DNA of 60,083 bases, the filler included, from Nitrospinae bacterium RIFCSPLOWO2_12_FULL_45_22 (lineage in GTDB: Bacteria; 2-12-FULL-45-22), in assembly GCA_001803565.1 (NCBI GenBank). It is 2 parts of 2 records of this genome, joined end to end, with 100 filler letters (N's around TTAATTAATTAA, not from the genome) between each part and the next. Parts side by side here need not be neighbours in the genome. Positions count along the whole stretch, not along the records: positions 1 to 28,334 come from MHDQ01000127.1; 1 more part is not named here. One strand, written 5' to 3'. Position numbers and translations under genes: made by a program. Numbering within the stretch: position 1 is the first letter of the stretch; each line of letters begins with the position of its first letter. The notes under the pieces are model-generated. The model was not told the DNA's origin. It did not search any database and saw only the letters and a list, made by a program, of their open reading frames with translations. Below are positions 3,090-47,257 of the stretch, piece by piece.

Positions 3090-3316
3090 TCTACCCATCC
3101 TGTTGAGGTATTTCAATAATTCCATTCTATAGATTGGTAGGTTTTTTTTCAAGGGATAAACTGGGAAAGGAGGATAGGCTACTTTTTAGCAGGATTTATA
3201 TCTATTAAAAGGGGGGGTAATTATTTGCTGTTATTCTGACAAAAAATAGCCGTCCCGAAGAAAAAGTAACCTCTCCCCCTTTTTGTTGGTGGGGAAAGAG
3301 GGAGGGAGCTAGTTAG

Positions 3317-4555
3317 TTACTTAGTGCTTGATTCTGCCAGGAGGTTTTTTTCATCTCCAGCTAATTGCACTCTAATTTCCTCTTTTTTAATGACGCAAGG
3401 TTCATATAGATAAAATATATTAGCATTGGTGCTAACTTCTTCCTTAAGGGATATAGGGAAGAGAAATTCCTCCCTGCGGACCTCCTTGGGCGCTATCCGG
3501 TTATCTTTAATGATTTTGCTGCCTTTAATCAAGATATCACTCTCCTCGGATAATATATTCCTATCTTTGTCTATCACAATCTTTTCATATACCCGGCTGC
3601 TACTAAAGGCTTGATTATTGCCGGTTTTAACCTCTACCAAAAGGGCTAACTTTCGATTAGGCATGCCTGTAGGGATTTTATGGCCGGCACCATGGTTTTC
3701 TATTTCTACCACCATCGTCATTTCTTCTGGTTTCCTTACAATATCCTTAATATTAACTCTTACCGCCTCTTTCAGCATATCTAAAGTATTAACCCCTACA
3801 CAGCACAGAAGGGCTTCTTGTTTTTTTCCTTTTATAAGCTGAGGGTCTTCAAAAGCCAGGGTCCCCTTTCTCTGGGGTATATGGCAATAATGGCATTGTT
3901 TGCCATCAGCGGCATAGGGACTCTCTGTCCATTCAGAAAAGGTGCTCAGAATAGCCAACCCATGCTCGTTTTTATGCTCATGACAACCGGCACAAAAATA
4001 GGAGGTATTGAAGAGGAAGGCATATTGGGTCTCATGGGCAGGCGAGCGAGCATCTTTCAAGGGACCCCATTTGGTCAATCCTAGCTTGATCTCAAAGGGA
4101 TTCTCCTTATTAGTTAGATTCACGTCTTTGACGCTATGGCAAAAATCGCAGGTTACACCCTCTTTGGTGATTTCCTGTTTTAGATCATAATCATTATTAA
4201 TTAATACAGCCGGGGCATGGCACTTCAAGCAATTATATTTTGCTGCACCAGCAGTATTCTTATATACCTCCGCATAAGCCCCATTAAAGACAGGATCTTC
4301 TAAGGACTTAGCATGCATGGATTCTTTCCAGGTGTTATAAATGGATTGATGGCATTTGCCACAGATTTGACTACTGGTAAGAGAATCCTTCTGTAATTTA
4401 GGGATGTGTTGGGCAGTTGTTTTTTTAGTTTTGAGGTCTACGCTCTTTGTTTGGCCATGCTGGGCCTTTAGATTACGCCCCATCAAGATAAATAGAAGAG
4501 TAAGAGCAACTGCTAAGGCCCCCCCCCTATGGATCCAAAAAGGATTATTTTTCAT
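3317..4555 (-). CDS. Periplasmic pentaheme c-type cytochrome (cytochrome c554-like family)
   Basis: N-terminal hydrophobic signal; five CXXCH motifs (CGKCH, CLKCH, CDFCH, CAGCH, CHYCH); conserved GAGHKIPTG; RBS AGGAGG upstream. Confidence 0.88.
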   Translation of the reverse strand: MKNNPFWIHRGGALAVALTLLFILMGRNLKAQHGQTKSVDLKTKKTTAQHIPKLQKDSLTSSQICGKCHQSIYNTWKESMHAKSLEDPVFNGAYAEVYKNTAGAAKYNCLKCHAPAVLINNDYDLKQEITKEGVTCDFCHSVKDVNLTNKENPFEIKLGLTKWGPLKDARSPAHETQYAFLFNTSYFCAGCHEHKNEHGLAILSTFSEWTESPYAADGKQCHYCHIPQRKGTLAFEDPQLIKGKKQEALLCCVGVNTLDMLKEAVRVNIKDIVRKPEEMTMVVEIENHGAGHKIPTGMPNRKLALLVEVKTGNNQAFSSSRVYEKIVIDKDRNILSEESDILIKGSKIIKDNRIAPKEVRREEFLFPISLKEEVSTNANIFYLYEPCVIKKEEIRVQLAGDEKNLLAESSTK

Positions 4556-4683
4556 GGTGTATCCCTCCTCCTATGCTTTGGTCTCCACCTCAAAAAGACC
4601 TGAAGACCAAGATATCCTCTCCCCCATCCTTTTTCCGGGTAGAGTAGACTTTTTATTTGAATCTCTTCCGGTGAGGGGATAAT

Positions 4684-5640
4684 TTATGGTTGGTTTTTGA
4701 TAGTCACTATATCCCCGTCAGTCTTAAATTTTTGTATCGAGAGGAGATAGGCAGTTATATTGCCCATTTCCCTTTCAGAAAGCTTGACCGGGACAAGACC
4801 GCTATTTTTCATCTCTTGCTCCATTTCTGGAAAATGGTTCCACATTAAGCCTGCCACCTGTCCAACTGTCCGGGGAACGCCCTTATTAATCTGGCTGATG
4901 ATAGTAAACTCCGGCCCGGTATTTCCTCCTTTCCCACGGATAGAATGGCATCTTAGGCAAGTATTTTGCCTTATTACCTTTTCCCCTTCTTTTTGATCTC
5001 CAAGGGTAAGATAAACCTTTTCTTTCGGTGGGCTAAGTTTTTGGATATATGCCAGTAAATCGACTAAATCACCACCATTAAACTGTGGCCAGGGAATATT
5101 TGTCCTCTTCATCTCTTTTTTCATCTCCGGGGCATGGTTCCACATCCGGGCAATCCAGGAGACCGGGTTAGCGAACTTAGCCTTTGGTCTCAAATCAGGA
5201 GCAATCTTGTTATGGCACGAATTACAACTCTTCTCGGCTAAGACCTTTTCTCCTTTATCTGGATTACCCGGCCCATCCAAAGTCTGGATAAATTTGAGGA
5301 AAGAGACTAGAGCGGGAACCTCTCCCGGAGAAATCCTAATGGATAAGAGTTTATTATTACCCATCTTTATCCCTTCTTGTATGGCATGCTTCCCGTATTC
5401 AGTTGCCAGCTCTCCAAAAGGGAATCCGCTCAGATTGCTCTCTCCTTTTCCCCCCATATCCCAGATAGGGTGGCAATTTATGCACCCTTTTTCGTAAAAG
5501 ATTTTCCAACCCCGCTTAGGTTCCTCCAGAGTATAGGCATTACCCTCAGACAAAAGGAGTAAAGAGGGGCAAAATATCGATACAATAAGGAGTGAAAAGG
5601 CGATAAATCTTATTCTCTTAAGCTTCTTATCCACTTTCAT
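4684..5640 (-). CDS. Triheme class I c-type cytochrome with MWNHxPEM repeats
   Basis: Signal/TM segment; CINCH, CNSCH and CLRCH each in a cytochrome c domain; RMWNHAPEM and LMWNHFPEM. Start at MKVDKK after AGGAGG. Confidence 0.85.
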   Translation of the reverse strand: MKVDKKLKRIRFIAFSLLIVSIFCPSLLLLSEGNAYTLEEPKRGWKIFYEKGCINCHPIWDMGGKGESNLSGFPFGELATEYGKHAIQEGIKMGNNKLLSIRISPGEVPALVSFLKFIQTLDGPGNPDKGEKVLAEKSCNSCHNKIAPDLRPKAKFANPVSWIARMWNHAPEMKKEMKRTNIPWPQFNGGDLVDLLAYIQKLSPPKEKVYLTLGDQKEGEKVIRQNTCLRCHSIRGKGGNTGPEFTIISQINKGVPRTVGQVAGLMWNHFPEMEQEMKNSGLVPVKLSEREMGNITAYLLSIQKFKTDGDIVTIKNQP

Positions 5641-5660
5641 ATCACCTCCTTTTAAATTTG

Positions 5661-5829
5661 TTGGTATTGTCAAAACTTCACCACAGAGTACACAGAGAAA
5701 TCATTAAATATCAACCTGCCTGTGCCACGGCAGACAGGTAAGTTGTGAGGATTTTGATTTCCTCCCCTCTGTGCTCTCTGTGGCTTTATATTGTTCCCTC
5801 TCTTTTCATAAAACTTTTGACATTACCAA
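5661..5829. repeat. Nested palindromic REP/MITE-like element (three concentric inverted repeats)
   Basis: Outer IR ttggtattgtcaaaa 5661-5675 / ttttgacattaccaa 5815-5829; middle IR ccacagagtacacagag 5681-5697 / ctctgtgctctctgtgg 5767-5783; inner hairpin acctgcctg-tgccacgg-cagacaggt 5714-5739. Confidence 0.75.
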
Positions 5830-5910
5830 TTTGCTAGGACACAGATTTATAAATTTTTTTATCTTTTGCATATTCCGTTGCATCCTGGAAATCCGGTCAA
5901 TAAAGTGGTA

Positions 5911-6879
5911 TTAGTCTATGGCTAGTTCTTTAGCTTTTTTGAATTCCTCAGCCATGGCTGTCAACCCTGCGGCTGTGCCTAGATTCATACTATCAATCGC
6001 TGTTGATGGCACCAGCACTATAGTAGAGTTCCCTTTAAGCCCCTCAAACAGCATATTCATGGCCCTTAAATGCAGGGCAGTAGGGTTATTCACATAGACA
6101 CGGGATGCATCCTCGAAGCTCTTGGCTATCTGTCGTTCTGAATCACCCAGGATTACCCGGGCCTGACGCTCTCTTTCAGCCTGTGCTTGCATAGACATAG
6201 CATCTTGCAGCGCTAGCGGGATAATTACATCCCTTATTTCCACGGCCTCAATCTCGATCCCCCAGGGGATAACCCGGTCATGGATAAGTTTTTTGAGATC
6301 CGTGTCTAGTTGTTCCCTCCCCACTAGCATCTCTGAAAGATCATATTTGCCAATAATGTCTCGCAAGCCTGTCTGGGCTGCCCAACTCACCGCCATCGAA
6401 TAATCCTCTACCTCAAGAGCCGCCTTCATGGGGTCAGTCACCTTCCAGAAAAGTACGGCATCCACATCCACTGGCACATTATCGCGGGTCAAGGTCTCCT
6501 CTGCCCGGAAGATAGTGGTTATCACTCGAAGGTCAATCCAATACGGGATAGAGTCGATTATAGGTATAATAGTAAAGAACCCTGGTCCCTTGGTGCGATG
6601 ATATTTACCAAGCCGCAGGATGATGGCCCTTTCCCATTGATCTGCTATCTTGATCATGCTGGCAGCAATGACGGCTAATATGAGAATCATTATGCCGGGC
6701 AAGATATTTAAGGTGGCAATGGATAGCAAGATGCCTACCAGGAATATTATGCTGGCGATAAGGAAAGATAAGGGATTAAGACCAAATTTTTTCCTTGCCC
6801 GTTTGAGCAGTATCTGTTCCATTAAGGCCCTCTCCCTCTGATCTCCCCGTGCTCCTTCATTGGAAGATATATTAGCCAT
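5911..6879 (-). CDS. SPFH/band 7 (slipin/stomatin-like) membrane protein
   Basis: Two N-terminal TM segments; QWERAIILRLG, TLTRDNVPVDVDAV, AQTGLRDIIG, QAQAERERQA. Confidence 0.92.
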   Translation of the reverse strand: MANISSNEGARGDQRERALMEQILLKRARKKFGLNPLSFLIASIIFLVGILLSIATLNILPGIMILILAVIAASMIKIADQWERAIILRLGKYHRTKGPGFFTIIPIIDSIPYWIDLRVITTIFRAEETLTRDNVPVDVDAVLFWKVTDPMKAALEVEDYSMAVSWAAQTGLRDIIGKYDLSEMLVGREQLDTDLKKLIHDRVIPWGIEIEAVEIRDVIIPLALQDAMSMQAQAERERQARVILGDSERQIAKSFEDASRVYVNNPTALHLRAMNMLFEGLKGNSTIVLVPSTAIDSMNLGTAAGLTAMAEEFKKAKELAID

Positions 6880-8149
6880 ATTCGCTCCCTCCTTCTAAAA
6901 AGTGAAATGATTTATCCTTGGTATTTGTTGCCCAGGGTGGACCTAATCCAGGGATTAGCTTTCGCCCGCGGCACCGTTCACATAGCTGAAGCAATGATAA
7001 TAATAAATCTCTTTCTCCTTCCTGCCCAAGCTTATGAAGGACATAGGCCTGACCGGGTAGAGGTATGATACCTCCACACTCCTGACACCTCCTAAGGGGA
7101 CTCCTCACCAATATCTCCTTGGTGGGCTCCCGGTTATCTCCGGGAGATCCTTTTCTAAGCACCTGCAACGCCTTTTCCGGACAATTTTCAATGCAGACAA
7201 AACATCCAGAGCACCTTGCCGGATAAAAGTTAAGCTGAACTTCCTCTTCCAATAAGGATATCTCTAATGCACCATCCAGGCACTGCAGGGAGCAAATCCC
7301 ACAAAAGGAGCAATCTTCTTTTTTAATATGTAACCAAATTGTCCTCTCCTTACCTGTATGCTCCTGTTTAAGGGGCGGGCACAGAATCCCACCACCATGC
7401 CTTAACGGCATTTTTCCATCCATACCAGGAATTTGGTGGCCTTTTGTTTGGTTGTCTGGAGAGACCTTTTTTTCGCCCAATGCTCCTTCTCCTAATAAAC
7501 TTTTCAAATAGCGCAGATCAGCCTTGATCCATCTTAGAAGGAGCCTTGCCAGAGAGGGATAAAGCGGTTCTGCCGCGTGCTCTTGCAAAGAATCAACAAA
7601 AGAGGGTAGCCACCATAGAATATGGCGGGAGAGAAACTGATATTGTTTTTCCCACCACTTTTCTGGTAAGTCGGCAAAAACTTCCTGCTCACAGAGAAAA
7701 CTCATAAACTCTAACTCGAGGATTAGGTGATCCGGCAAATCGTAGAAAGTTTCAGCTATCTCCAGGCCCTCTCTCCTATAGAGCTTGAGGGCATCTATAG
7801 CGGGCTGAGCCATAACCGACTGGCCTCGGGGATGGATATATGCAGATGCATATGGAGGTATTAAGGGCCTACCGGGGCCATAAAAGAGACGATTATAGGC
7901 TACCTCTAAAGCCAATAGGCCGTGCTCTTTATATCCTTTCTTGAAAGGGCAGAGAATATCTGTGACCTCTTGCAAAATTGATTGGATTTCAACGGGTGGG
8001 GGTTGATCTTCCGAACTACCTGACCAATCTTTACACCATCTGGTAATCTGCTGCAGAAACTCCTCGAGATAGGAATCTCCTTCTGGGCGCGAGAAAGCCC
8101 GGGCCATTAGGACATAACCTCTTTGTCGGATTTCAGCTAATAAGGCCAT
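6872..8149 (-). CDS. TorD/DmsD-family molybdoenzyme chaperone fused to a 4Fe-4S dicluster ferredoxin
   Basis: N-terminal YNRLF, PPYASAY and LPDHLILELEFM (TorD/DmsD motifs). C-terminal CSFCGICSLQC, CSGCFVCIENCP, plus CQEC...CERC. Confidence 0.85.
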   Translation of the reverse strand: MALLAEIRQRGYVLMARAFSRPEGDSYLEEFLQQITRWCKDWSGSSEDQPPPVEIQSILQEVTDILCPFKKGYKEHGLLALEVAYNRLFYGPGRPLIPPYASAYIHPRGQSVMAQPAIDALKLYRREGLEIAETFYDLPDHLILELEFMSFLCEQEVFADLPEKWWEKQYQFLSRHILWWLPSFVDSLQEHAAEPLYPSLARLLLRWIKADLRYLKSLLGEGALGEKKVSPDNQTKGHQIPGMDGKMPLRHGGGILCPPLKQEHTGKERTIWLHIKKEDCSFCGICSLQCLDGALEISLLEEEVQLNFYPARCSGCFVCIENCPEKALQVLRKGSPGDNREPTKEILVRSPLRRCQECGGIIPLPGQAYVLHKLGQEGERDLLLSLLQLCERCRGRKLIPGLGPPWATNTKDKSFHFLEGGSEYG

Positions 8150-9690
8150 CGGTATCTCCTTGCTGATTCACGCTTGGGAAGGATACAGATTTGTAGAGGC
8201 AAGCTCCATAAGGTAATAATACCTAATACCCAGATAGCCGGTGCGGGTGGCGTTTCCCGAGTAATGATCCCAGTAGCTATAAGTCCTACCCCGGCTAGTA
8301 GAGTTAAAGGGATAGTAAAACGTTTTATTAATCCTAAGATGTTTTTTATCCTCTCATAAGGAGAGACATAGTAAGGTAATATTACCGGGCTATGCGTAGC
8401 TACGCGGACTTCTTCGGGCAGCTCTAAGACCGGCAATACTTTAACCAGAACGGTATAAAGGAAGGCACAGAAGATAAAGCTCCCGGCGATCAGACTCCAA
8501 TCGAAAAAAGTAGGCATATATGGGGCGATTTTATAAGGCAGGTGGGGGTGATAGAAAGAGGGTACTACAATAAGATAGCGCCAGATCCACATGGATATAA
8601 AGACCGGGATAGCTGCAAGAACTGTCAGCTTTATGCTGCATATCCGGGGATTGGCGCCCTGGATAAAAAATATCCAAAAAGGTACGACCATTCCCAGGAT
8701 AGTAGCTGGCCAGGTGATCTTGGCAAATCGGCCAAAAAGCACATCATTAAACACTACCCTTTCGGCTGCCGGTGGGGCATAGGTCCCGGTTAGCCACTCA
8801 CTGAATAGAAAATAGAGATATAGCCAGGTGACAAAACCTAGAAATACCCCCAGGCCTTTGAATATCCGCGGATAAAATATCTCTTGCCAGCCAAAGGTCT
8901 GCCGCAGGATAGCCAGGACTATAATGACAAAAGAGAAGCCTGTAACTATTGCCCCTAAGACAAAATAGGGGGCCTGGAAGGGATTAAACCATCCGGGCCT
9001 CCCGGCTTGCATCCCAAAGATATACCCATAGACTGAATGGACTGATACCATTATGGGAAGGATTATGACAGCCAGCCACCAGACCACCCGCTCATGGGTC
9101 TGACGGCTCTGGGGGGTGTCCGAATACCCCAGGGCCAGTAGTTTATATAGCCAGCGCTTATGAGAAGGCAATACCAGGGAGCAGATATATAAATCACGGC
9201 GCATAGCCAGGTATAAGTAAACACTACTACCAATAAGATATGTAGTGATGACAGTCATGGACCAGACAAAGGGGGCATGAAAGCGGCCATGCTTAACCAC
9301 ATTAAAGATAAAGCGATCTGGCCGGCCTACATCCATAGATATATTCAATACTGCTGTGGTTAAGGAAGCAAGGGTAACCAGCTCTGCTATGCGGGCTAAC
9401 TGCTTATATCGCTCTAAGTTTAATATGCGTACTACCGCAGAAATAGCGATCCCGACGTGGCTGATGCCAATAAAATGGACAATATCAGCCACCAGTATCC
9501 CCCAGATAGCACCCTGGGAGCCCTGGCCAGTAAAGTGATGCCCCTCAAAAAATTGGAGCTGAAAATTATAGAAAAGCCAGATTACCCCGGCCAGGAGCAA
9601 TCCAAAAAAGGGATAAAACATCCAACTGGTATAAATTAAGGGACGCAACAATAGTTCTAATTCTCTGTCTTCTATATATCCTCGCGCCAT
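8137..9690 (-). CDS. nrfD: NrfD/PsrC-family integral membrane quinone-interacting subunit (ActC/QrcD-like)
   Basis: About 10-12 hydrophobic helices; IGISHVG, RIAE, DVGRP, VSVHSV, PGW...PYFVLGAI. Confidence 0.9.
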   Translation of the reverse strand: MARGYIEDRELELLLRPLIYTSWMFYPFFGLLLAGVIWLFYNFQLQFFEGHHFTGQGSQGAIWGILVADIVHFIGISHVGIAISAVVRILNLERYKQLARIAELVTLASLTTAVLNISMDVGRPDRFIFNVVKHGRFHAPFVWSMTVITTYLIGSSVYLYLAMRRDLYICSLVLPSHKRWLYKLLALGYSDTPQSRQTHERVVWWLAVIILPIMVSVHSVYGYIFGMQAGRPGWFNPFQAPYFVLGAIVTGFSFVIIVLAILRQTFGWQEIFYPRIFKGLGVFLGFVTWLYLYFLFSEWLTGTYAPPAAERVVFNDVLFGRFAKITWPATILGMVVPFWIFFIQGANPRICSIKLTVLAAIPVFISMWIWRYLIVVPSFYHPHLPYKIAPYMPTFFDWSLIAGSFIFCAFLYTVLVKVLPVLELPEEVRVATHSPVILPYYVSPYERIKNILGLIKRFTIPLTLLAGVGLIATGIITRETPPAPAIWVLGIITLWSLPLQICILPKRESARRYRWPY

Positions 9691-10373
9691 TCCCCTTCTC
9701 CTAAATAGATAACCTTGGGATGAGTGCCTAGCTCTTCCAAGAGCCGGAAGGCCCGGCGGCTCCGGGCTAGCTTTGACACCATACTTTCTGGATCATCCAG
9801 GTCGCCAAAATAACGGGCCTTGGCTGGACAAGTCTGTACACAAGCAGTAACATATTCCCCCTCCCGGATAGGCCGGTCTTCTGACCGGGCCTTCTCCCGG
9901 GCCTTCTGCCAGCGATGGACACAAAAGGTACATTTTTCTACCACACCTAAGGGTCTGAGCGATACATCAGGGTTAAAAGCACTCTGCATTATTTCTGGCC
10001 AATGGCCCTTGCTCCAATTATAGAATCTCCTGCTATAGGGACAGGCACACATACAAAGCCGGCAGCCAATACAGCGGGCAAAGATCTGAAAAACTATCCC
10101 CTCTTCACTCTTATAGGTGGCCCTTACCGGGCAGACTTTTATACAGGAAGGCCGATCACAATGCATACAGGGAAGTGGGGTAAAACGTATGCGAGAATAT
10201 CCCTGCTCCCCTTCTTCCTTGAAGGGTAGTACCTGATTCCAGAAGATGGCTCTACCTTTAGAGGCATGATCGGGACCAGCAAAGGGGATATTATTCTCAT
10301 TCCGGCAAGCAATCGTACAGGCCTGACAAGCCGTACATCTATCCAGGTCTATCACCATACCCCACCTTGGCAT
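9672..10373 (-). CDS. 4Fe-4S electron-transfer subunit (QrcC/DsrO/PsrB-like)
   Basis: MPRWGMVIDLDRCTACQACTIAC, CMHCDRPSCIKVCP, CIGCRLCMCACP, VVEKCTFC...CVQTCP. Confidence 0.93.
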   Translation of the reverse strand: MPRWGMVIDLDRCTACQACTIACRNENNIPFAGPDHASKGRAIFWNQVLPFKEEGEQGYSRIRFTPLPCMHCDRPSCIKVCPVRATYKSEEGIVFQIFARCIGCRLCMCACPYSRRFYNWSKGHWPEIMQSAFNPDVSLRPLGVVEKCTFCVHRWQKAREKARSEDRPIREGEYVTACVQTCPAKARYFGDLDDPESMVSKLARSRRAFRLLEELGTHPKVIYLGEGEWREDI

Positions 10374-10391
10374 TCTACCACCTCCCTCCTT

Positions 10392-12842
10392 TTAAACTTT
10401 TACTAAACGTACCCGGGTAGAGCCCCAGGAAACATTACCCGTAAGATAATTAAATTCCGTCCCTATAATTTTATTCAGGTTTTCTCCCCTATTTCTTGCC
10501 CAGCGGCCATAAGAGCTATGGCCATATTCGAAGGGGACATTTAGGACATGCCGCTGAGCCCCTTCAAAGATCAGGGCTTTAAATTGGACCCGGCCAATAG
10601 GCGACTCTACCCATACCCGCTCTTCATCCTCTATTCCCAGAATGTGAGCATCTTCAGGGTGGATCTCCAGCCAGGGTTCCCAGCTCTTGCTATGCTGGAG
10701 GCCAAAGATTTCTTGCAGGTGGGGCTGATTGCCTCCTCTACCTTCGGCATGGGGCATAACCTTATAGGTATTGATCAAAAAAGGATATTCTTTTTCATCC
10801 CCTATGAACCGCAGGGGCTCATAATGGGGCATAAAAACCTCATCTCCCTGGCCGGATAACTGCAACTTTTCTATTAATTGCTCAAAGGCCTTTTCATGGG
10901 TTAATCCTTCTCTATCTGCGATCCTTTGTACTAGTTCATCTATCTTTAATTTCATGAGCAAAGAATAAAATTCAAACTTCCTTGAGGGGGTCCTTATAAC
11001 TTCCTGCCATTGAGCAAACGAATATGGTGGTGCCCACCAACCCCCATTATCTAAGAGGGCAGCCCAGAACTTTTGGGGTTCTTTTTCTTGGATAGAACCC
11101 CTTCCAGCGGTCCTTATTCCTTCTAAGGCATCTCTAACCATATCCAGATAATTATCTAAAAAGGCCGCCCCCACCGTTCCTCCAATGGCCTTAGCAATAG
11201 CGATCATTACATCCCCTGTATGCCTGGTATTATATAAAGGCTTAACCACAGGCTGCCTGATACCTAATAGAGGGTAGCCTGTACTCGAAGGGATCTCATC
11301 ATCTTCCCACCGCTCTAGATAAGTATGGTCCGGTAGGATTAGATCAGCCATATGGGTAGATTCATCCAAAAAGGGAGAAAAACTTACTATAAAAGGAATC
11401 TTAGTAAACGCCTCATAATATCTACTTATTTGTGGGCTAGAGAAGAGGGGATTAGTATAATATAAAAAAAGAGTATCTAATTTGTAGGGGTACCCTGCCA
11501 GGATATTATTGGGCAAGGTGGCATAGGCACTGGATGCAAAAGGAAATGTTTCTGAGCCGGCTAAGTCTATTCGAGGTTGTTTCAATCCCTTTATCGCTCC
11601 TGCATCCAAAGTCGGCTCCCACCACTCTTTGAAGGGTGGTCTTCTTTGAATCATTACCCCGCCCGGTATATCTAGAGAACCTATGAGGGCATTAAGAGAA
11701 TGGACAGCCATACAGGTATATAGCCCGTTGGATTGGCCACTAATCCCCCGGCCATATATAGCAATACCAGGTCTATGGCTGGCAAATTCCTGAGCAGTCC
11801 GTTCAATTACCTTCGTGGGGACACCGGTAATAAGGGAGACCTTTTCGGGGGGGTATTGTTCTATTACCAAATGTTTGAAGCCTACATGCTCCTTGCCAGA
11901 ATCATCCCGCCAGTCATCGAAGCCAAAGGTATAGTTTTTTACAAAAGTATGATCATAGAGATTGTCTCGGATAATGACATGGGCCAATCCTAAAGCCAGA
12001 GCCCCATCGGTACCTGGTTTTACTCCTATCCATTTATCGGCTTTGGATGCCGATATGGAATAACGGATATCTATTTGGACTAATTTAGCGCGGATTCCTG
12101 GCCGACCTCGATGCATTTGACCATACATGCGTAACCGGTAGGCAGCGGGCACTCCTGCCTCGAGTAAACTGGTGCCAAAACAGAGTATATAATTGGTATT
12201 TTCCCAATCATAGGCAAAATAGTCCTTAGCGCCTTGCATAAAATAGTGAGCTGACATGGCCCCTTCCATCCCCAGATCATGACTAATATTGTTAGGAGAC
12301 CCATAGACCTTAAGGAAGCGGTCCATGAGCGGACCCATATGGCCCCGGTAGTGACCCCCAATGACTGCTACTCTATGGCTTTCCCCCTTACTTCGGAGTT
12401 TAGCAAGTCGAGTCCCCAATTCTTTAATGGCCTGTTCCCAGGAAATGCTTTGCCATTTCCCTTCCCCTCGCTCACCAACCCGCTTCATTGGACCCCTGAT
12501 CCTGTCAGGGTCATAGAGCACCTGGAGCCCATTTTGGCCTTTGGGACAGAGCCCCCCCAGATTGGTGGGATATATAGGATTCCCTTCAATCTTTACTGCC
12601 CGGCCTTCAACTACCCTCACCTGAATGCCACACCCACCCGGGCATTGTAGACAGATACTTTTATAGTAACGCTCCTCCCCTAGCGACCATTCATCTGCCC
12701 CGGGCACTGGTGGTTTATCAATTTCATATTCTTCCGGCCATCCTTCCTCCAGGAGTTCTTCTATTCGACAGCTAGTCATGCTTCCAGCTAATAGGGCAGC
12801 ACTAGCCGATTTTAGGAAGGTTCGACGGGTAACTTTTGACAT
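10392..12842 (-). CDS. DMSO-reductase-family molybdopterin oxidoreductase subunit (ArrA/PsrA/QrcB-like), Tat-exported lipoprotein
   Basis: TRRTFLK twin-Arg motif and lipobox-like MTSC; FS0 motif CLQCPGGC...LCPKG; YDPDRI, GSPNNISH, PGTDGALALG, ADLILPDHTYLER; C-terminal molydop-binding domain. Confidence 0.92.
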   Translation of the reverse strand: MSKVTRRTFLKSASAALLAGSMTSCRIEELLEEGWPEEYEIDKPPVPGADEWSLGEERYYKSICLQCPGGCGIQVRVVEGRAVKIEGNPIYPTNLGGLCPKGQNGLQVLYDPDRIRGPMKRVGERGEGKWQSISWEQAIKELGTRLAKLRSKGESHRVAVIGGHYRGHMGPLMDRFLKVYGSPNNISHDLGMEGAMSAHYFMQGAKDYFAYDWENTNYILCFGTSLLEAGVPAAYRLRMYGQMHRGRPGIRAKLVQIDIRYSISASKADKWIGVKPGTDGALALGLAHVIIRDNLYDHTFVKNYTFGFDDWRDDSGKEHVGFKHLVIEQYPPEKVSLITGVPTKVIERTAQEFASHRPGIAIYGRGISGQSNGLYTCMAVHSLNALIGSLDIPGGVMIQRRPPFKEWWEPTLDAGAIKGLKQPRIDLAGSETFPFASSAYATLPNNILAGYPYKLDTLFLYYTNPLFSSPQISRYYEAFTKIPFIVSFSPFLDESTHMADLILPDHTYLERWEDDEIPSSTGYPLLGIRQPVVKPLYNTRHTGDVMIAIAKAIGGTVGAAFLDNYLDMVRDALEGIRTAGRGSIQEKEPQKFWAALLDNGGWWAPPYSFAQWQEVIRTPSRKFEFYSLLMKLKIDELVQRIADREGLTHEKAFEQLIEKLQLSGQGDEVFMPHYEPLRFIGDEKEYPFLINTYKVMPHAEGRGGNQPHLQEIFGLQHSKSWEPWLEIHPEDAHILGIEDEERVWVESPIGRVQFKALIFEGAQRHVLNVPFEYGHSSYGRWARNRGENLNKIIGTEFNYLTGNVSWGSTRVRLVKV

Positions 12843-12863
12843 GGTCTCCTCCTACAAGAACTT

Positions 12864-12941
12864 AGATTGCTTCGTCGCTAACGCCCCTCGCAATGACATT
12901 GAGGTCTGATTTTGTCATTGCAAGTGAAGCGCGGTTATCTC
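12864..12941. repeat. GTCATTGCGAG/AGATTGCTTCG-type palindromic repeat pair
   Basis: agattgcttcgtcgctaacgcccctcgcaatgaca (12864-12898) facing a degenerate inverted copy tgtcattgcaagtgaagcgcggttatctc (12913-12941). Confidence 0.65.
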
Positions 12942-12973
12942 AAAAAGAGAATTCCTGTTTGAGCCAACTATCA

Positions 12974-13501
12974 CTACCTGTGGCATGCAGAACAATCATT
13001 AGATACCTTCCTCTGCTCGTGGCAGTCCATACAGGTGTCCATATTCAAAGTAGCCATGATGGGCTTGTCCAAAGGTAGTTCCTTTTCTCCGATATCCCCA
13101 TGGCAGGTTTTACAAGCTATCTTGCCTATTGCCGCATGCCGTTTATGGGAGAAATAGACATGACGAGGCAACTTGTATAGCCTTATCCAGGGTATTTGGC
13201 CTCCATTGGATGAATATTTCTCCAGAATATCAAAGGGTGGCGCGGTATTCCCCTCGTGACACTCCAGGCAAATTTCTAATCTGGGTATACCGGGATCAGT
13301 CCTAGTAAAGACAAACAGATGGCAATTCTCACATTCTAATCCGCTTTCGTTATGGATCTTATGGTTGAAGGGAAAAGGTTGTTTTAAAGAGTTAGAATTA
13401 AACGGATTGATTTTTTGGACATTGGCTTGGGCCAAAATAGATAAAAATACTATTCCCCCAATAACAGTGAAAAAAAGCCCCAAGAATAAAATCTTCTTCA
13501 T
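12974..13501 (-). CDS. Membrane-anchored pentaheme cytochrome c3-family protein (QrcA/ActA-like)
   Basis: N-terminal TM; QPFPFNHKIH; CENCH, CLECH, CKTCH, CMDCH, CSACH; IPWIRLYKLP.HVYFSHKRH. Confidence 0.92.
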   Translation of the reverse strand: MKKILFLGLFFTVIGGIVFLSILAQANVQKINPFNSNSLKQPFPFNHKIHNESGLECENCHLFVFTRTDPGIPRLEICLECHEGNTAPPFDILEKYSSNGGQIPWIRLYKLPRHVYFSHKRHAAIGKIACKTCHGDIGEKELPLDKPIMATLNMDTCMDCHEQRKVSNDCSACHR

Positions 13502-13514
13502 AACCCCTCCTTTC

Positions 13515-13877
13515 TTAAGTACATGAGATCTTTTGGTTTAGCCGGTCCAGATTTAAGGGTTCCTCAAAACAATCGAAAAAATCGATCTTATTGTCCTCTA
13601 TTCCATCATCATTGAACTCCTTTCCTAGTAGTAGAATGATATGGATATTAGGATTAATCTTCTTTATTATGGGAGCTATATCATAACCGGTTAAGCCCGG
13701 TAGCTGTCCCTTTAGAATGGCGGCATCGATCCTTTCCCTAATACTAAGAGAGAGGGCTTCTTTGCTGCTCTCTGCCTGGATCACTTCGTGACCTTTGGCA
13801 GAAAAAAAATGGGCAATTTGTTCTCTCTCTTCCTTATTGTCATCTGCTATAAGGAGCCTTTTTCTTTTATCTATCAT
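13515..13877 (-). CDS. Stand-alone atypical receiver-domain protein
   Basis: CheY-like LLIADD...; phospho-acceptor position reads AAILKGQLPG instead of xxxLDxxLP. Start at MIDK after GAGG; the ORF track extends to 13925. Confidence 0.75.
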   Translation of the reverse strand: MIDKRKRLLIADDNKEEREQIAHFFSAKGHEVIQAESSKEALSLSIRERIDAAILKGQLPGLTGYDIAPIIKKINPNIHIILLLGKEFNDDGIEDNKIDFFDCFEEPLNLDRLNQKISCT

Positions 13878-14099
13878 AGCCAAACCTCTGGGCTCCAAGG
13901 ATTTATTTGATGGGCAAACCTTCATACCCTAACGGACACCACGAGGCATAAATAACTTGAACTGTAGCGTGAAAGTCTGCTTTCATAAATGCCAGCAAGC
14001 TGGTGCGCTACCTTATTTGTTAATGGAACCAAAATGCTATTTTCAGGACAAACAAATAAAGGTTTATGAAGGATTCTAAAACCAACTGAATAGAGACTG

Positions 14100-14115
14100 A
14101 GCAAATAGCGTGCCT
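14100..14115 (-). promoter_or_regulatory. Sigma54 (-24/-12) promoter of the respiratory operon
   Basis: Minus strand AGGCACGCTATTTGCT fits TGGCACG-N4-TTGCW with exact GG-N10-GC spacing; adjacent to an NtrC-family gene. Confidence 0.8.
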
Positions 14116-14130
14116 TTACCGATTTCAAGC

Positions 14131-14171
14131 AAAAAAAAAGCCACCTAATTCTTACTTAGGTGGCTTTTTTT
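14131..14171. terminator. Rho-independent (bidirectional) terminator
   Basis: A-run + gccacctaa-ttcttac-ttaggtggc + T-run, downstream of the NtrC-family gene. Confidence 0.8.
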
Positions 14172-14187
14172 GTATATGGGGTTATAT

Positions 14188-14261
14188 AACACCGAGACCC
14201 AGAGCCGAGTAAGAAAAGAATTTTTAATTTATTTCTCTAAGTCTCCCGTGCCCCGGTGGTT
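14188..14261. repeat. Degenerate CACAGAG-type inverted repeat pair
   Basis: aacaccgagacccagag ... ctcccgtgccccggtggtt; resembles the middle IR at 5681-5783. Confidence 0.4.
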
Positions 14262-14282
14262 AATTTTAATCACCTCTTCAGG

Positions 14283-14380
14283 ATCGCAATTTGAAATACC
14301 CCCTATCCCTAAGTCTAGATACCATAAAGGTTTTTAAGCCGCTATCCCAAATTTCAACACATCATTGCATTTTGCAATAC
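14283..14380. promoter_or_regulatory. Candidate upstream activator sequences for the sigma54 activator
   Basis: Related 17-mers atcgcaatttgaaatac (14283), atcccaaatttcaacac (14344) and attgcattttgcaatac (14364, palindromic TTGCA-N3-TGCAA), 170-265 bp upstream of the -24 element. Confidence 0.5.
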
Positions 14381-15765
14381 TAATCCCTCTTCTCAAGCCT
14401 TCGCCAGATAGTACTGGTACTAATTCCTAGAATCTCTGAGGCCTTCCTTCTATTCCATTTAGTGGCTTGCAGGACTTCCAAAATATAGTTCCTTTCCACT
14501 CTCTCCAGGGAGGGAAAGGATTCTAGCTGAGTACTATTTTTGGCCGTTCTTTTTTGCGAAATACTATTTTCTCGTCCTCTCTCCAGCAATTGGTTAAAAC
14601 TTTCAGGTTCGATCGAATCGCCTTCTGCCAATATAACTGCCCTCTCGACAACATTTTCTAGTTCCCGGACATTGCCAGGCCAGCTATAGTTAAGTAAAAG
14701 TGTCATAGCCTCTTCACTAAAACCCTGGATCTTCTTTTTAACTTCATTATTGTATTTTTTCAAGAAATGGTTAGCCAACAAAGGGATATCCTCTTTTCTT
14801 CCTCGGAGAGGTGGGAGAAAAACAGGAACCACATTTAACCGATAATAAAGTTCTTCCCGAAACTCACCTTTCTTTATAGCCTCTTTCAAGTCTTTATTGG
14901 TAGCGGCAATAATACGAACATCCACCGAGATACTTTTTTCGCTCCCCACTGGTTTTATTTCTCTCTCCTGTAAGGCCCGTAACAACTTAACCTGGAGATC
15001 CAAACTCATATATCCTATTTCATCCAGAAAAAGGGTACTCCCATGAGCCAGCTCAAAACTGCCTTTCCGGCTCCTCATAGCCCCAGTAAAGGCCCCTTTT
15101 TCATGACCGAACAGGTCACTTTCTAATAACTCTGCTGGGATAGCCGCGCAATTAACCGTAATCATGGGTTTATGGGAACGGTGACTCCTCTTATGGACAT
15201 CTTCGGCAACTAACTCTTTCCCGGTCCCAGTTTCTCCGAGAATCATTACGGTCGAGTTGGTCTTAGCTATTTTATTGATTAATCTATCAACCTCCCTCAT
15301 CTCCTGGCTCTCTCCCAGTAAGACCCGTTCTTCCTTATTTATCCTTAATCTTTCTCTTAAATCCCTATTCTCTATCACCAATCTCTGCTTTTCTAGGGCT
15401 TTCTTTACCAGCATTCTCAATTCTTCGGGAGTAAAGGGTTTGGGAAGATAGTCGTAGGCTCCCTCCCTCATTGATCTAACAGCGGTTTCTATGGTAGCAT
15501 AGCCAGTTATCATAATAACCTCTATCTGGGGATTGATTTTCTTTATTCTTTGCAATAATTCAATTCCATCCATCCCCGGCATCTTTATATCAGCCAATAC
15601 TACCTGATAATCTTTAGCCCCTATATTTTCTAGGGCTTCTTGGGCCCGGTTAGCAGTATCAATACTGTACCCTTCTTTAGTTAGGGCTTGGGTACAGGCA
15701 TCCAGGGTATCCTCTTCGTCATCTACTATTAATATCCATATGCCAGTTTGAGACTGTCTCTCCAT
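14380..15765 (-). CDS. Sigma54-dependent NtrC/AtoC-family response regulator
   Basis: Receiver ILIVDDE...LADIKMPG; AAA+ GETGTGKE, ESDLFGHEKGAFTGA, WPGNVRELEN; Fis-type HTH. Confidence 0.95.
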   Translation of the reverse strand: MERQSQTGIWILIVDDEEDTLDACTQALTKEGYSIDTANRAQEALENIGAKDYQVVLADIKMPGMDGIELLQRIKKINPQIEVIMITGYATIETAVRSMREGAYDYLPKPFTPEELRMLVKKALEKQRLVIENRDLRERLRINKEERVLLGESQEMREVDRLINKIAKTNSTVMILGETGTGKELVAEDVHKRSHRSHKPMITVNCAAIPAELLESDLFGHEKGAFTGAMRSRKGSFELAHGSTLFLDEIGYMSLDLQVKLLRALQEREIKPVGSEKSISVDVRIIAATNKDLKEAIKKGEFREELYYRLNVVPVFLPPLRGRKEDIPLLANHFLKKYNNEVKKKIQGFSEEAMTLLLNYSWPGNVRELENVVERAVILAEGDSIEPESFNQLLERGRENSISQKRTAKNSTQLESFPSLERVERNYILEVLQATKWNRRKASEILGISTSTIWRRLEKRD

Positions 15766-15956
15766 CCTATATCCCTTCTCCAATTATCCTGAATCCAGAG
15801 CGAATGCTCTTTATGCTAAGAAAATAGTGGATCTTTTTTAGCATTTTGTAGTAGATGCTGGATGAACTCTAGGATTTGGTGAGCTTCCTCGCCGCTCAAT
15901 AATTTGATCATCTTATGTAGTGATTCTTTAACCGAACTCATAATCGATACCTCTAA

Positions 15957-16070
15957 TTATGCACCTACTTCAAAAACCTGTTCTTCGCTAACTAACTCAG
16001 CGGCATATACATATAATAAAACAGCTTGTATATCTTCAAATTCCAATTCTGGATAATCTTCAAGCAAATT
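15957..16070 (-). pseudogene. DUF433-type antitoxin C-terminal remnant
   Basis: Manual translation NLLEDYPELEFEDIQAVLLYVYAAELVSEEQVFEVGA*; no in-frame start or N-terminal part. Confidence 0.65.
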
Positions 16071-16153
16071 TTGCTTCAATAAAGAAATCCCGCCAAATGG
16101 ATCATCTGACGGGAACTTTCTATGAGTTGAGCCATCAAAAACGCTGCCCGGCT

Positions 16154-16381
16154 TCAGTCGCCCGCCGTCATCAGCACCTGCTTTGCCTCTTCCGGAAGTT
16201 CAATAGGTGCAAACATTGATGCTGGATAAAGATAGCCGTCAGGCTCTGACTTGTCCTCATCAATGACGCGAAGCATGTTGTGCGCTTCTGCCTCCGGGTC
16301 TGACAACGTACGGTAAACTTTGCCCACGATCAGGCTTGCCGGATTGCTGTCATTGTTGATACAGATCACAAAATCGCTCAT
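16154..16381 (-). CDS. Small conserved hypothetical protein (downstream member of a putative TA-like pair)
   Basis: FVICINN...PASL...K.Y...RVIDE...YLYP...IELP; ATGA overlap with the upstream fragment. Confidence 0.7.
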   Translation of the reverse strand: MSDFVICINNDSNPASLIVGKVYRTLSDPEAEAHNMLRVIDEDKSEPDGYLYPASMFAPIELPEEAKQVLMTAGD

Positions 16382-16476
16382 CGTATCTTCCTCTTAATTT
16401 TGAAATCCTTACGACCGATGCCATGCGCTTCAAACCAGTGTATCTCAGCTTGGCAAATTGTACCATACCTCACCAC
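16378..16476 (-). pseudogene. 5'-truncated partner gene fragment (AEIHWFEAHGIG)
   Basis: Manual translation VVRYGTICQAEIHWFEAHGIGRKDFKIKRKIR*; translationally coupled to 16381. Confidence 0.6.
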
Positions 16477-16495
16477 CTCCTCTCTGGCATCGGGG

Positions 16496-16721
16496 TCAAA
16501 AAATCTGGTCTAATGGACTCTTAATTGCCATTAGATCCTTACTGGTGACATGGGTATAAATCTCAGGTGATATGCCTCTCCTCCTTCTGCCCATGAAAAA
16601 GCCATCTTTTGGGATGGGACTCAAGATAATATTCCTTCAAGGCTGCTAAGGCTACTCCTGAAAGCAAGGTATATCTATCCTTTCTACCCTTTGCCCCTTT
16701 AATATGAATCAATTTTCGCAT
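16496..16721 (-). pseudogene. Tyrosine recombinase (XerD/integron-integrase-like) remnant with frameshift and internal deletion
   Basis: MRKLIHIKGAKGRKDRYTLLS...ALKE, then a frame change to YLESHPKRWLFHGQKEERHIT, then a junction to EIYTHVTSKDLMAIKSPLDQIF*. The HxLRHS box is missing. Confidence 0.75.
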
Positions 16722-16767
16722 TATATTACACGAGCTTTATGACAAAGAATAGCCACACCCTAATGAA

Positions 16768-18273
16768 TTAACTTTTCCTGACCGTAATGGGTAAGCTAAC
16801 CTTAAAGATGGTCTTAAATTCCTTTCCCTCTGTAGGGGAAGAATTTTGTGTCTCTACCCATATCTTGCCACTATGGCGCTCAACAATTCCATAGCATATG
16901 GATAATCCCAATCCTGTTCCCTCTTCTTTGGTGGTATAGAAAGGCTCAAATATCTTATCTAAACACTCCTTCGGTATCCCAGGGCCATTATCCTTTACTC
17001 CAAAAATGATACTTTCCTTGTCCTCCCCTAAATGAGTAAATACCTCGATCTTACCACCGTTATGTAGAGATTGGATGGCATTTTGGATCAGGTTAATGAA
17101 GACTTGTTGGATCTGATTTTTATCGCAAAGGACTTGAGGTAATGCGGGATCAGTATCTAATTGAACATCTATTTGCTGGATCTCCATATGATGCCGCAGC
17201 ATCATTAGCGATTTTTCTGCAATATCATTGATATTATTCGAGGTCATAACACTTTCTGACTCTCTGGTATAATCTAATAAGGCGGAGACAATATTTTTAC
17301 TCCTTATAGTATTATCCACGATCTTTTGGGTATTCTTATATTTTATATCCCCGGGCTCTAATTCTTCTAAAAGTAGTTTAGAATAGAGCATTATATTACC
17401 TATGGGGTTATTAAGTTCATGGGCAATACCGGCCGCTAGTTGGCCAGTAGCAGCCAGCTTCTCCGACTGAACCAGGTGACGTTGAATCTCTTTTAAGTTA
17501 GTAGTCATCCGATTAAAATGGTCTGCCAGATGGGATATCTCGTCCTTGCCCGGTATCTCTATCTTCTCTTCCAGCTTCCCCTCCCCTATTAGTTTAGAGG
17601 TTTTTTCTAAAAGCTTTAGTTTTTTTATAACCAATCTATTCATCAAAGAACTTATCACCAGTATTAATAAGCCAACCATTATAACCACCAGGAGAAACAA
17701 TTTACCTAAATTAGAAGAGAGCTGTCGATTAATATCGGCTAAAGAAAAATCCATCAAAATAATCCCATTGATTTTAACCTTGGGATCATGACACTCATGG
17801 CAGGGTTCCCGATTCAAGATAGGGCTAATATTGCGCAAAAATTCTCCTCCCTGTTTATCCTTTAAAAAGATGCTCTTGGTCCTTGTCTCTGGGGCTAATT
17901 GATGACAGATCTGACAGGTAGCATCTTGCTTATTCATTATCTTTCCTATGACCCCTTTATCAGAAGAGACTTTTATAACGCCTTCTTTATTAAGAATCAC
18001 AATATTTTCTACCCCGTCTTGCCTAGCCAGCTCTTCTACCATGCCATGGAGGATAAGGGGTCGGTTCATTAGCATGGCGTATTCCAAATTGTTCTGGACC
18101 AAGCTACTTAAATAAGTGACAGAGACTTGAAAACTGCTTATAAGCTGCTCTCGATGGAAGTTATATAAAAAGTAAAAAAAGACACCAAGAAAAACTGTTA
18201 GTATAGATATAGTGGCGGAGATTATTTTGAATTTCAATCTGTTGTAAAAAGAGATATTGAGCATTACTCTCAC
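16768..18273 (-). CDS. Sensor histidine kinase with diheme-c periplasmic domain, HAMP, HisKA and HATPase
   Basis: Two TM segments flanking CQICH and CHECH; HAMP GKDEISHLADHFN; H-box AAGIAHELNNP; DNGPGI, GTGLGL. Confidence 0.93.
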   Translation of the reverse strand: MRVMLNISFYNRLKFKIISATISILTVFLGVFFYFLYNFHREQLISSFQVSVTYLSSLVQNNLEYAMLMNRPLILHGMVEELARQDGVENIVILNKEGVIKVSSDKGVIGKIMNKQDATCQICHQLAPETRTKSIFLKDKQGGEFLRNISPILNREPCHECHDPKVKINGIILMDFSLADINRQLSSNLGKLFLLVVIMVGLLILVISSLMNRLVIKKLKLLEKTSKLIGEGKLEEKIEIPGKDEISHLADHFNRMTTNLKEIQRHLVQSEKLAATGQLAAGIAHELNNPIGNIMLYSKLLLEELEPGDIKYKNTQKIVDNTIRSKNIVSALLDYTRESESVMTSNNINDIAEKSLMMLRHHMEIQQIDVQLDTDPALPQVLCDKNQIQQVFINLIQNAIQSLHNGGKIEVFTHLGEDKESIIFGVKDNGPGIPKECLDKIFEPFYTTKEEGTGLGLSICYGIVERHSGKIWVETQNSSPTEGKEFKTIFKVSLPITVRKS

Positions 18274-47223: not shown

Positions 47224-47257
47224 TAATGGCACAGACCTTAATGGCACAGACCTTGCA
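47224..47257 (+). promoter_or_regulatory. Sigma54 promoter with tandemly duplicated -24 element
   Basis: 15-bp tandem taatggcacagacct x2; the second copy forms TGGCACAGACCTTGCA (GG-N10-GC). Palindrome ttcccatattgggtaa at 47105-47120. Confidence 0.7.

Follow-up and report, generated by a model that had tools for sequence, protein, structure and literature searches.

A putative quinol:cytochrome c module of the alternative complex III/Qrc clade, with a well-preserved molybdoenzyme-family subunit and its own cytochromes, in a Nitrospinae genome

We analysed a 60,083-nt stretch of DNA (the window) from the metagenome-assembled genome (MAG) of Nitrospinae bacterium RIFCSPLOWO2_12_FULL_45_22 (GCA_001803565.1), in which the minus strand of 3317–18273 encodes a respiratory system centred on a membrane-anchored pentaheme cytochrome (A), a Tat-exported protein of the Mo-bisPGD family (B), an Fe-S protein (C) and an NrfD-type membrane protein (D). 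From sequence comparisons, we tentatively read this locus as a quinol:cytochrome c module of the clade that holds alternative complex III (ACIII) and Qrc, with cytochrome partners of its own; this reading, which takes in both the direction of electron transfer and a B without catalytic function, has in our judgement slightly less than an even chance. The window is made up of two contigs, C127 (1–28434) and C128 (28435–60083); the locus lies wholly on C127, and inference across the joint at 28434/28435 is not warranted. An earlier description of the same DNA made without database searches (the sequence-only reading) had reported an eight-gene minus-strand run carrying 13 CXXCH motifs. The open reading frames (ORFs) and their domains, as judged by Pfam and NCBIfam, were found as described, and the motifs are distributed as 5 + 3 + 5 among the three cytochromes, with two more in the adjacent sensor kinase. 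Missing from that description was a receiver-only gene (13515–13925), which intervenes between the promoter and the first cytochrome gene.

The four core subunits were compared with all solved structures in the PDB. The comparison agrees with the sequence-only reading in that ACIII/Qrc parts are mixed here with a Mo-family subunit: A, C and D find their best matches in ActA, the Fe-S half of ActB and ActC, respectively, and B is far less decayed than QrcB and ActB. For A, ActA chains take the first four places among solved relatives (8k9e_A at 9e-22, followed by 6btm_A, 6lod_A and 6f0k_A, to 1e-17). The best solved relative of C is the C-terminal half of ActB (6f0k_B, 1e-59), with PsrB at 4.5e-35 and ArrB at 1e-34. 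The sole PDB matches of D are the four ActC chains, from 1e-24 (6f0k_C) to 6.5e-21, over residues 26–427. A crude hydropathy scan gives D 11 hydrophobic segments, where 10 helices are expected of the ActC type, and two of these segments lie in some 90 additional residues at its C-terminus. In NCBIfam, A is best named by the QrcA model and C by the QrcC model, both below their cut-offs (90.4 bits against 180 and 287.8 bits against 400, respectively). Identification of D as QrcD was rejected because the QrcD model NF041784 (cut-off 570) matched nothing on the contig at E <= 0.001; proteins that are true QrcD score 619–683 bits.

B carries the Tat motif TRRTFLK and an intact CX2CX3CX27C motif for the Fe-S cluster FS0. 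Among solved structures it is closest to ArrA (6e-93, 315 bits, whole length), followed by PsrA (1.5e-59), and ActB appears at about 1e-14 to 1e-15. It falls under every curated equivalog cut-off (score/cut-off: ArrA 355/1600, PhsA 320/694, TtrA 138/1750, DmsA family 196/778). On the QrcB model NF041783 (cut-off 440) it reaches 301 bits in three stretches, against 503–525 for the true QrcB proteins of three Desulfobacterota genomes.

Relatives of B were drawn from four sources: the protein collection, a set with one genome per species, metagenome contigs, and representatives at 50% clustering. They were arranged in a quick 66-row tree, a more careful 44-row tree (IQ-TREE, LG+G4) and a 205-row FastTree, none of which includes solved ActB or the QrcB of D. 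vulgaris. The groups were labelled according to NCBIfam, with three true QrcB above the cut-off, an Arr/Arx-like group at 754–1142 bits on ArrA and a Psr/Phs-like group at about 400 on PhsA; the last two are group labels, no member of which reaches a curated cut-off. The ActB model TIGR04519 spans just a 45-position Tat leader. In the 44-row tree, B falls in a 32-row clade with the three true QrcB (UFBoot 100, SH-aLRT 100), in agreement with the 66-row tree. Outside this clade stand, successively, a Tepidimonas/Enterobacteriaceae group (92/92), the Arr/Arx-like group (96/90) and the Psr/Phs-like group. A fused ActB-type protein of 1020 residues (P0382), which matches 6lod_B over its full length at 4.5e-111, also falls within the clade of B (FastTree, 0.95). 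The view of B as an outlier between families is not borne out, since B is placed at 100/100 inside a clade with true QrcB, and in the FastTree with the fused ActB type as well.

The two closest relatives of B are 79% and 72% identical to it, and neither was recovered in the scan of metagenome contigs. The architecture with a separate, FS0-bearing B is already published: in its accessible text, the report of Kato et al. (2015, PMC4643136) describes actAB1B2CDEF clusters of iron oxidisers whose split ActB1 has CX2CX3CX27C, and names an 'ACIII-Qrc clade'. A search of the open-access literature found this iron-oxidiser ACIII-like cluster and no prior description of members of the B clade that bear a Cys at the metal-ligand position. 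When 401 Desulfobacterota genomes were sampled for loci of the Cys-bearing sister group described below, 12 had a family member, the best 52% identical to P0010.

The metal site of B has lost the canonical Cys ligand. The ArrA stretch ...SSVCAEAH... aligns with ...HD-LGMEGA... in B, so that the ArrA Cys, which we take to be the Mo ligand, faces Gly191. Of the 18 catalytic references, at least 17 have Cys in this column; the 79% relative has Gly there and the 72% relative Gly or Ser, depending on the alignment. Across the B clade the ligand loop is hypervariable, with any Cys in 15 of 126 representatives (50% clustering) and about four of these in an ArrA-like context. With the ligand Cys lost, B is most likely a scaffold and not an enzyme. 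The FS0 site shows the opposite picture: C64, C67, C71 and C99 are invariant in 41/41 aligned family members, and all four Cys are kept in 108 of the 126 clade representatives. The three true QrcB above the curated cut-off (L110, L111 and L112) carry them too, and thus FS0 alone does not separate B from Qrc, although QrcB is described as lacking redox cofactors in the accessible text of PMC13059093.

The alternative to a scaffold is a true hybrid, which we consider unlikely. In such a hybrid B would keep Mo/W-bisPGD and turn over a periplasmic substrate, tying the quinone pool to a catalytic site and a haem wire; the metal would have no protein ligand, as in arsenite oxidase, or would be held by a neighbouring Asp or Glu. 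The intact FS0 is consistent with it, and so is the state of the remaining site residues. Columns conserved in all 18 catalytic references are non-discriminating (B 42/45, true QrcB 37–40/45). Signature columns were taken as those that 23 Cys-bearing proteins conserve and that differ in three or more of four Qrc-type B; of these, B keeps 17/18, losing just the Cys, and true QrcB keep 0–2, in a set partly defined with B's own relatives. A control set of 26 columns was defined from 12 outgroup enzymes only. Here B keeps 16 (its immediate clade 15–16), the same as the Cys-bearing sister group (15–17), with basal Cys-bearing proteins at 17–19, decayed groups at 9–13 and true QrcB far lower at 0–3. 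In the large alignment B keeps 16/28 and the fused P0382 11/28, and only two of the 126 representatives reach 16.

The immediate clade of B is sister (100/100, IQ-TREE) to a group that retains the ArrA-like ...ESLC..., and the branch lengths are alike, 0.25 for the clade of B and 0.33 for the Cys-bearing sister. From this placement we infer an ancestor with the Cys and loss of the ligand along a short branch. Apart from the ligand, the remaining site residues of B appear to be under constraint. The sequence-only reading had called B apparently cofactor-bearing; the substitution of Gly for the Mo-ligand Cys tells against this, and the preserved FS0 and signature residues speak for it.

The chaperone gene in the operon, claimed earlier as TorD, is indeed of the TorD family: its product matches Pfam Nitrate_red_del at 97.6 bits together with Fer4 families, and lies below the cut-offs of both NCBIfam TorD and the type II DMSO-reductase chaperone. 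No hydrophobic segment was found in the TorD-ferredoxin protein, which is therefore presumably cytoplasmic. Its presence favours the hybrid in that such a gene suggests a role in inserting the cofactor or in proofreading for Tat. TorD genes also accompany decayed B proteins (9–12/26) in L013, L016, L098, L101 and L104, and thus the gene is not decisive for cofactor retention. Further points against the hybrid are the Gly or Gly/Ser of B and its two relatives, the hypervariable loop, and the position of B under all curated cut-offs of characterised enzymes. The signature residues may also have been kept for folding or by shared ancestry. In L152, the one Cys-bearing basal member with readable upstream DNA, no ActA-type gene was found there.

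Among characterised catalytic enzymes, ArrA (ArrAB, 6CZ7) aligns with B over its whole length; B has FS0, a Tat signal and an ArrA-like ...GSPNNISH... stretch, and a TorD-type chaperone gene is present here. The Arr/Arx and Psr/Phs enzymes (PsrABC, 2VPZ) carry the ligand Cys, whereas B has Gly and lies outside both groups in both trees; PsrC and ArrC are 8-helix membrane subunits, in contrast to the ActC-type D, and an ActA-type cytochrome is present here. We also rejected the MOLY cluster as a counterpart. In sulfur disproportionators it comprises MolyA, MolyB and a chaperone of the TorD type, and the accessible text of PMC12998232 describes it without NrfD and without an ActA-type cytochrome. 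Since B has Gly for Cys, belongs to the QrcB/ActB-type clade and resembles a published split ActB1, catalysis on an oxyanion or a sulfur substrate, as proposed in the sequence-only reading, is at most possible.

The run of genes downstream of the regulators has the features expected of a single transcription unit. The -24/-12 promoter reported earlier is present as an exact GGCAC-N5-TTGC at 14101–14114: GGCACGCTATTTGC precedes the first ORF by 176 nt and stands just after the terminator-like hairpin of the activator gene. The exact pattern occurs twice in the 60 kb window, counting both strands. If one mismatch is tolerated, the number of matches rises to 15, where 8.8 would be expected, and the promoter argument therefore rests on position, not count. 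A stricter pattern, TGGCAC-N4-6-TTGC, misses the site because the site reads AGGCAC. The sole other exact match, TGGCACAGACCTTGC at 47243–47256 (+), belongs to the second contig, where it precedes by about 350 nt a gene for a GT4 glycosyltransferase (47603–48805) in an exopolysaccharide cluster.

The activator is of the NtrC type (Pfam Sigma54_activat, 245 bits, with Response_reg and HTH_8; NCBIfam AtoC/NtrC-like, below cut-off), and the periplasmic domain of the kinase carries its two CXXCH at residues 120 and 158. A diheme sensor domain of this kind, with two CXXCH 38 residues apart, is also found in the kinases beside the cassettes L098, L018 and L016, where it is combined with differing output regulators. 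The kinase and activator had been described as adjoining the run; both are present, with some 0.93–1 kb of apparent mobile-element debris between them. Pfam matches in this spacer are weak (Phage_integrase, E 0.026; DUF433, E 1e-4). A 927-nt skip at 15806–16734 was seen in three of four metagenome runs, with only 23 letters on its shorter side, a weak hint that the spacer is an insertion polymorphism.

Within the run, the ORFs overlap by 19 nt (C/D), 13 nt (D/TorD) and 8 nt (TorD/SPFH), and short gaps separate the receiver gene from A (13 nt) and B from C (18 nt). The triheme and the last pentaheme cytochrome genes are preceded by gaps of 270 nt and 128 nt, respectively, the first with a hairpin. 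These gaps favour the reading that the TorD-ferredoxin, SPFH and two cytochrome genes are mere neighbours that form no functional unit with A-B-C-D, a reading that we regard as very improbable. The overlaps of D/TorD and TorD/SPFH argue against it, and so does the origin of the first gap. In 4/4 metagenome runs position 5650 is joined to 5909, with 21 other letters in place of 5651–5908, and in this repeat-free variant the SPFH stop codon lies about 33 nt from the AGGAGG-ATG of the triheme gene. Partial copies of the 258-nt element occur at seven other places in the genome, at 77–100% identity over 29–169 nt. We therefore regard the element as a dispersed repeat, and the 270-nt gap as its secondary insertion.

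The same runs bear on the rest of the locus. The stretch recurs in 20 sequencing runs, all of DNA, from groundwater, soil and sediment metagenomes, and four independent runs among these DNA metagenomes gave near-identical long contigs over the remainder, e.g., 6392–16360 with 11 differences. At 12864–12898, depth rises to 23–197 compared with about 3–17 in neighbouring bins, and loose contig ends cluster at 12862–12865 and 12897–12900, in 4/4 runs; this 35-nt piece looks like a short repeat common to many unrelated contigs.

Gene order was compared in 35 related cassettes, some of them near-duplicates, of which 17 have at least 3 kb of downstream DNA. Most of the 35 keep the order A-B-C-D; those from Chloroflexota have class-I cytochromes in place of A. 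By tblastn, the triheme-type cytochrome was found in 3/17 (L098, L101 and L104, after D or TorD) and a homologue of the last pentaheme cytochrome in 1/17 (L098) and additionally in L153; a monohaem class-I cytochrome follows D in L017. The closest layout is that of L098, with a diheme kinase (41% identity), an activator (45%), a receiver-only gene, A, B, C, D, TorD and a class-I cytochrome, and with the pentaheme homologue close by on the opposite strand. The host genome itself holds a further A-B-C(-D) cassette (L121, G000:C182) and one on contig C290 (L122, G000:C290:1-12000), where a kinase and an NtrC-type activator are followed by TGGCATAAAAATTGCT, A-B-C-D and a four-haem cytochrome with MWNH repeats. 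The C290 promoter is a near-consensus sigma-54 promoter, and its kinase has CX4CH in place of the two CXXCH; TorD and SPFH were not found within 12 kb. In L153 (Desulfobacterota, G036:C26:20000-29668), a pentaheme c552/MccSep-like gene precedes A, B, C and D, which are followed by genes for two four-haem cytochromes, the first of class I, with a membrane protein of 75 residues encoded between them. An 85-residue membrane protein resembling the one in L153 also follows the C290 cytochrome.

The mere-neighbour reading draws on the sparse synteny of the SPFH gene (1/17) and of the pentaheme cytochrome (1/17 plus L153); it is opposed by the triheme type, which no fewer than five further loci have after D or TorD, and by the pentaheme type before A in L153. 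From this recurrence we conclude that the cytochromes and the diheme sensor belong to the system and that SPFH is an occasional addition. The sequence-only reading had made its case depend on co-transcription of the downstream cytochrome and SPFH genes or on their synteny in relatives; the cytochromes do recur (L098, L101, L104, C290 and L153), and the SPFH gene does so in a single cassette.

The resemblance to ACIII (6F0K, 6BTM, 6LOD, 8K9E) extends to an ActA-type pentaheme cytochrome, a module like the Fe-S half of ActB, an ActC-type NrfD protein, a Mo-family protein without the canonical metal ligand, and a class-I cytochrome c gene downstream. ACIII differs in that its ActB is fused, whereas B and C are separate genes here, and in that its ActE is monohaem, whereas a triheme class-I cytochrome stands at that place here. 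Compared with ACIII, the locus adds the TorD-ferredoxin chaperone, SPFH and the c552-family pentaheme cytochrome, and its B is nearer to ArrA than to ActB. QrcABCD, the menaquinone reductase of Desulfobacterota that reduce sulfate, shares with the locus the four-subunit A-B-C-D layout with B and C separate, a common clade for B, and the absence of the Mo-ligand Cys. Qrc models score A, B and C below their cut-offs and do not match D, and the Qrc host is a sulfate reducer rich in cytochrome c3.

On this basis, we propose that the locus would encode a periplasm-facing, quinone-interacting complex. D, the ActC-like subunit, would bind quinol; C would relay electrons through four Fe-S clusters to A, and A would pass them, in the manner of ActA, to the anchored triheme cytochrome in the role of ActE and to the c552-family pentaheme cytochrome, and from there presumably to a final acceptor. 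B would hold FS0 as a side branch, B and C would be exported jointly by Tat, and the TorD-ferredoxin protein would serve as the cytoplasmic chaperone of B. In response to a presumed signal, the diheme periplasmic kinase would act through the NtrC-type activator on sigma-54-dependent expression of the operon, in the order receiver, A, B, C, D, TorD-ferredoxin, SPFH, triheme cytochrome c and pentaheme cytochrome.

Several points weigh against the quinol:cytochrome c module. No second NrfD or ActD-like gene was found among the ORFs, so that ActD and ActF of ACIII are absent here. B is well preserved, equals the Cys-bearing sister group and is accompanied by a TorD gene, so judging by its residues it may bind a pterin cofactor. 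The run would be one sigma-54-dependent operon, with co-transcription deduced from spacing and synteny, and the synteny survey is without B's two closest relatives; in it, TorD homologues follow D in 6/17 cassettes and SPFH in 1/17 (L020, Planctomycetaceae, 57% identity). Sequence does not fix which way the electrons move. Qrc works from cytochrome to quinone. An ACIII-like complex of iron oxidisers with split ActB has been proposed, in the accessible text of PMC4643136, to work uphill in the same direction, from cytochromes to quinone.

In a reading with the Qrc direction, periplasmic donors would feed the pentaheme and triheme cytochromes, then A, then C and D, and finally (mena)quinone, in an energy-conserving or uphill reaction. 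True QrcB nested in the clade of B and the sub-cut-off names QrcA and QrcC for A and C favour it, as does the iron-oxidiser proposal. We nevertheless find it rather unlikely: D has no QrcD match and only ActC as a solved match, and neither a tetraheme c3-type partner nor a Cyc2-type porin was found in the locus. The partner cytochromes here are of class I, which are usually high-potential. A search of the genome also found a single haem-copper oxidase and two genes for cytochrome b. In this 85%-complete MAG, where absence is not proof, no DsrA passed the cut-off (best 57 bits against 393). The oxidase and cytochrome b genes, together with the lack of DsrA above the cut-off, make a misfit with the sulfate-reducer role of Qrc.

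Returning to the cytochromes of the proposed quinol:cytochrome c module, the triheme protein is built from domains of the class-I type, in each of which an MWNH motif follows the haem site (Pfam Cytochrom_C and Cytochrome_CBB3). The last pentaheme cytochrome, a distant member of the family of c552 and MccSep/ExtKL, scores 75 bits on the ExtKL model NF040886 (cut-off 250), and its PDB matches are c552 (5ze8_A, 1.6e-13) and MccSep (9wt8_A, 6e-5). According to the accessible text of a preprint (bioRxiv 10.1101/2025.11.18.688581), MccSep/ExtKL of Geobacter is a selenoenzyme that reduces polysulfide and has Sec325 and, as a haem ligand, Cys239. The last cytochrome shares with it five CXXCH followed by a C-terminal non-haem domain, alignment over the whole length and a conserved ...NHGAGH.IP.G.P... 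loop. In an alignment with six sequences passing the ExtKL cut-off, it has Met at the Sec325 position (T-G-M-P for D-G-U-P) and Ala or Ile, and no Cys, at the Cys239 position, so that both the catalytic Sec/Cys and the haem-ligating Cys of MccSep/ExtKL are absent. It was rejected as an MccSep-type polysulfide reductase on the absence of these catalytic residues, and is more likely an electron carrier, or a different enzyme.

Table 1. Features of the locus and its flanks; coordinates refer to the window
Feature	Coordinates	Strand	Basis
Sensor histidine kinase; two membrane segments flank the periplasmic domain	16768..18273	-	Pfam HAMP, HisKA, HATPase
Kinase/activator spacer, ~0.93 kb; probable insertion holding fragments with weak integrase and DUF433 matches	15806..16734	.	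Small ORFs, Pfam
NtrC-type sigma-54 activator: receiver, AAA+ sigma-54 interaction domain, Fis-type HTH	14380..15783	-	Pfam, NCBIfam
Terminator-like hairpin and T-run, 3' of activator gene	14131..14164	-	By eye; automated hairpin scan did not list it
Sigma-54 (-24/-12) promoter GGCACGCTATTTGC	14101..14114	-	Exact GGCAC-N5-TTGC
Receiver-only response regulator, first gene of the operon; likely start ATG 13877	13515..13925	-	Pfam Response_reg, 49 bits
Subunit A, membrane-anchored pentaheme cytochrome, ActA/QrcA type	12974..13501	-	5 CXXCH and N-terminal hydrophobic segment
Short widespread repeat in A-B spacer, beside an inverted repeat	12864..12898	.	Metagenome depth
Subunit B, Tat-exported Mo-bisPGD-family protein, FS0 intact, Gly191 for Mo-ligand Cys	10392..12842	-	Pfam, NCBIfam, alignments, trees
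Subunit C, Fe-S protein, four ferredoxin-type Cys motifs (16 Cys), without signal peptide	9672..10373	-	
Subunit D, ActC-like NrfD membrane protein	8137..9690	-	
TorD/NarJ-family chaperone fused to 2x[4Fe-4S] ferredoxin domain	6872..8149	-	Pfam
SPFH/Band 7 membrane protein	5911..6879	-	Pfam Band_7, 124 bits
Dispersed 258-nt repeat between SPFH and triheme genes, hairpin at 5714-5739	5651..5908	.	Metagenome joint
Triheme class-I-type cytochrome; likely start ATG 5640 behind AGGAGG	4684..5673	-	3 CXXCH
Pentaheme cytochrome with C-terminal non-haem domain, c552/MccSep (ExtKL) family	3317..4555	-	5 CXXCH
Terminator-like hairpin with T-rich tail, 3' of last cytochrome gene	3259..3305	-	By eye; automated scan did not list it

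Just downstream of the operon, 2076–3152 (-) encodes a protein of the AIR-synthase family (HypE 114/252, ThiL 104/184, SelD 97/125, all below cut-off). Elsewhere in the genome, locus L123 (G000:C270:1-6519) places an NrfC/NrfD-type pair, a Fer4_11 protein with NrfD, among three glycine-cleavage-H-like genes, which is an odd combination. The genome carries at least nine Mo-family genes and three ACIII/Qrc-type cassettes, this one included. Its phylum is represented by two genomes in the collection searched, and the best named relatives of its Dxs protein, from MAGs labelled Nitrospinota, Tectomicrobia and Nitrospirae, are 65–67% identical; the lineage is therefore very thinly sampled.

ACIII and Qrc are the textbook examples of a 'dead' molybdoenzyme subunit serving as the core of a respiratory complex. 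Our data arrange the QrcB/ActB-type clade as a graded series, from proteins that keep the ArrA-like Cys, through those such as B that have lost the Cys and kept nearly all other site residues, to the strongly decayed true QrcB. The term 'evolutionary intermediate' used in the sequence-only reading suits the family as a whole, with its gradient of Mo-site decay, and is less fitting for this locus as a unique case. That the locus itself is a living intermediate, with B as a working Mo/W-bisPGD protein that has an Arr-like site minus its Cys ligand, between catalytic reductases of the arsenate/polysulfide type and cofactor-less ACIII/Qrc scaffolds, seems to us doubtful, and it is a possibility that the Cys-bearing sister and basal lineages are unrecognised enzymes.

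The cassettes also broaden the known range of such systems. QrcD was once described, in the accessible text of a review (PMC8076601), as restricted to Deltaproteobacteria. Named protein matches come from Rokubacteria, Nitrospinota and Nitrospiria MAGs, and A-B-C-D cassettes occur well beyond Desulfobacterota, in MAGs labelled Chloroflexota and Planctomycetota, often bringing their own class-I cytochromes and a diheme sensor kinase. Of the three cassettes in the genome of this uncultured organism from groundwater and soil, at least two (this one and that on C290) have their own sigma-54 switch. Taken together, the graded decay of the Mo site supplies concrete proteins for studying cofactor loss, with B near the intact end of the series.

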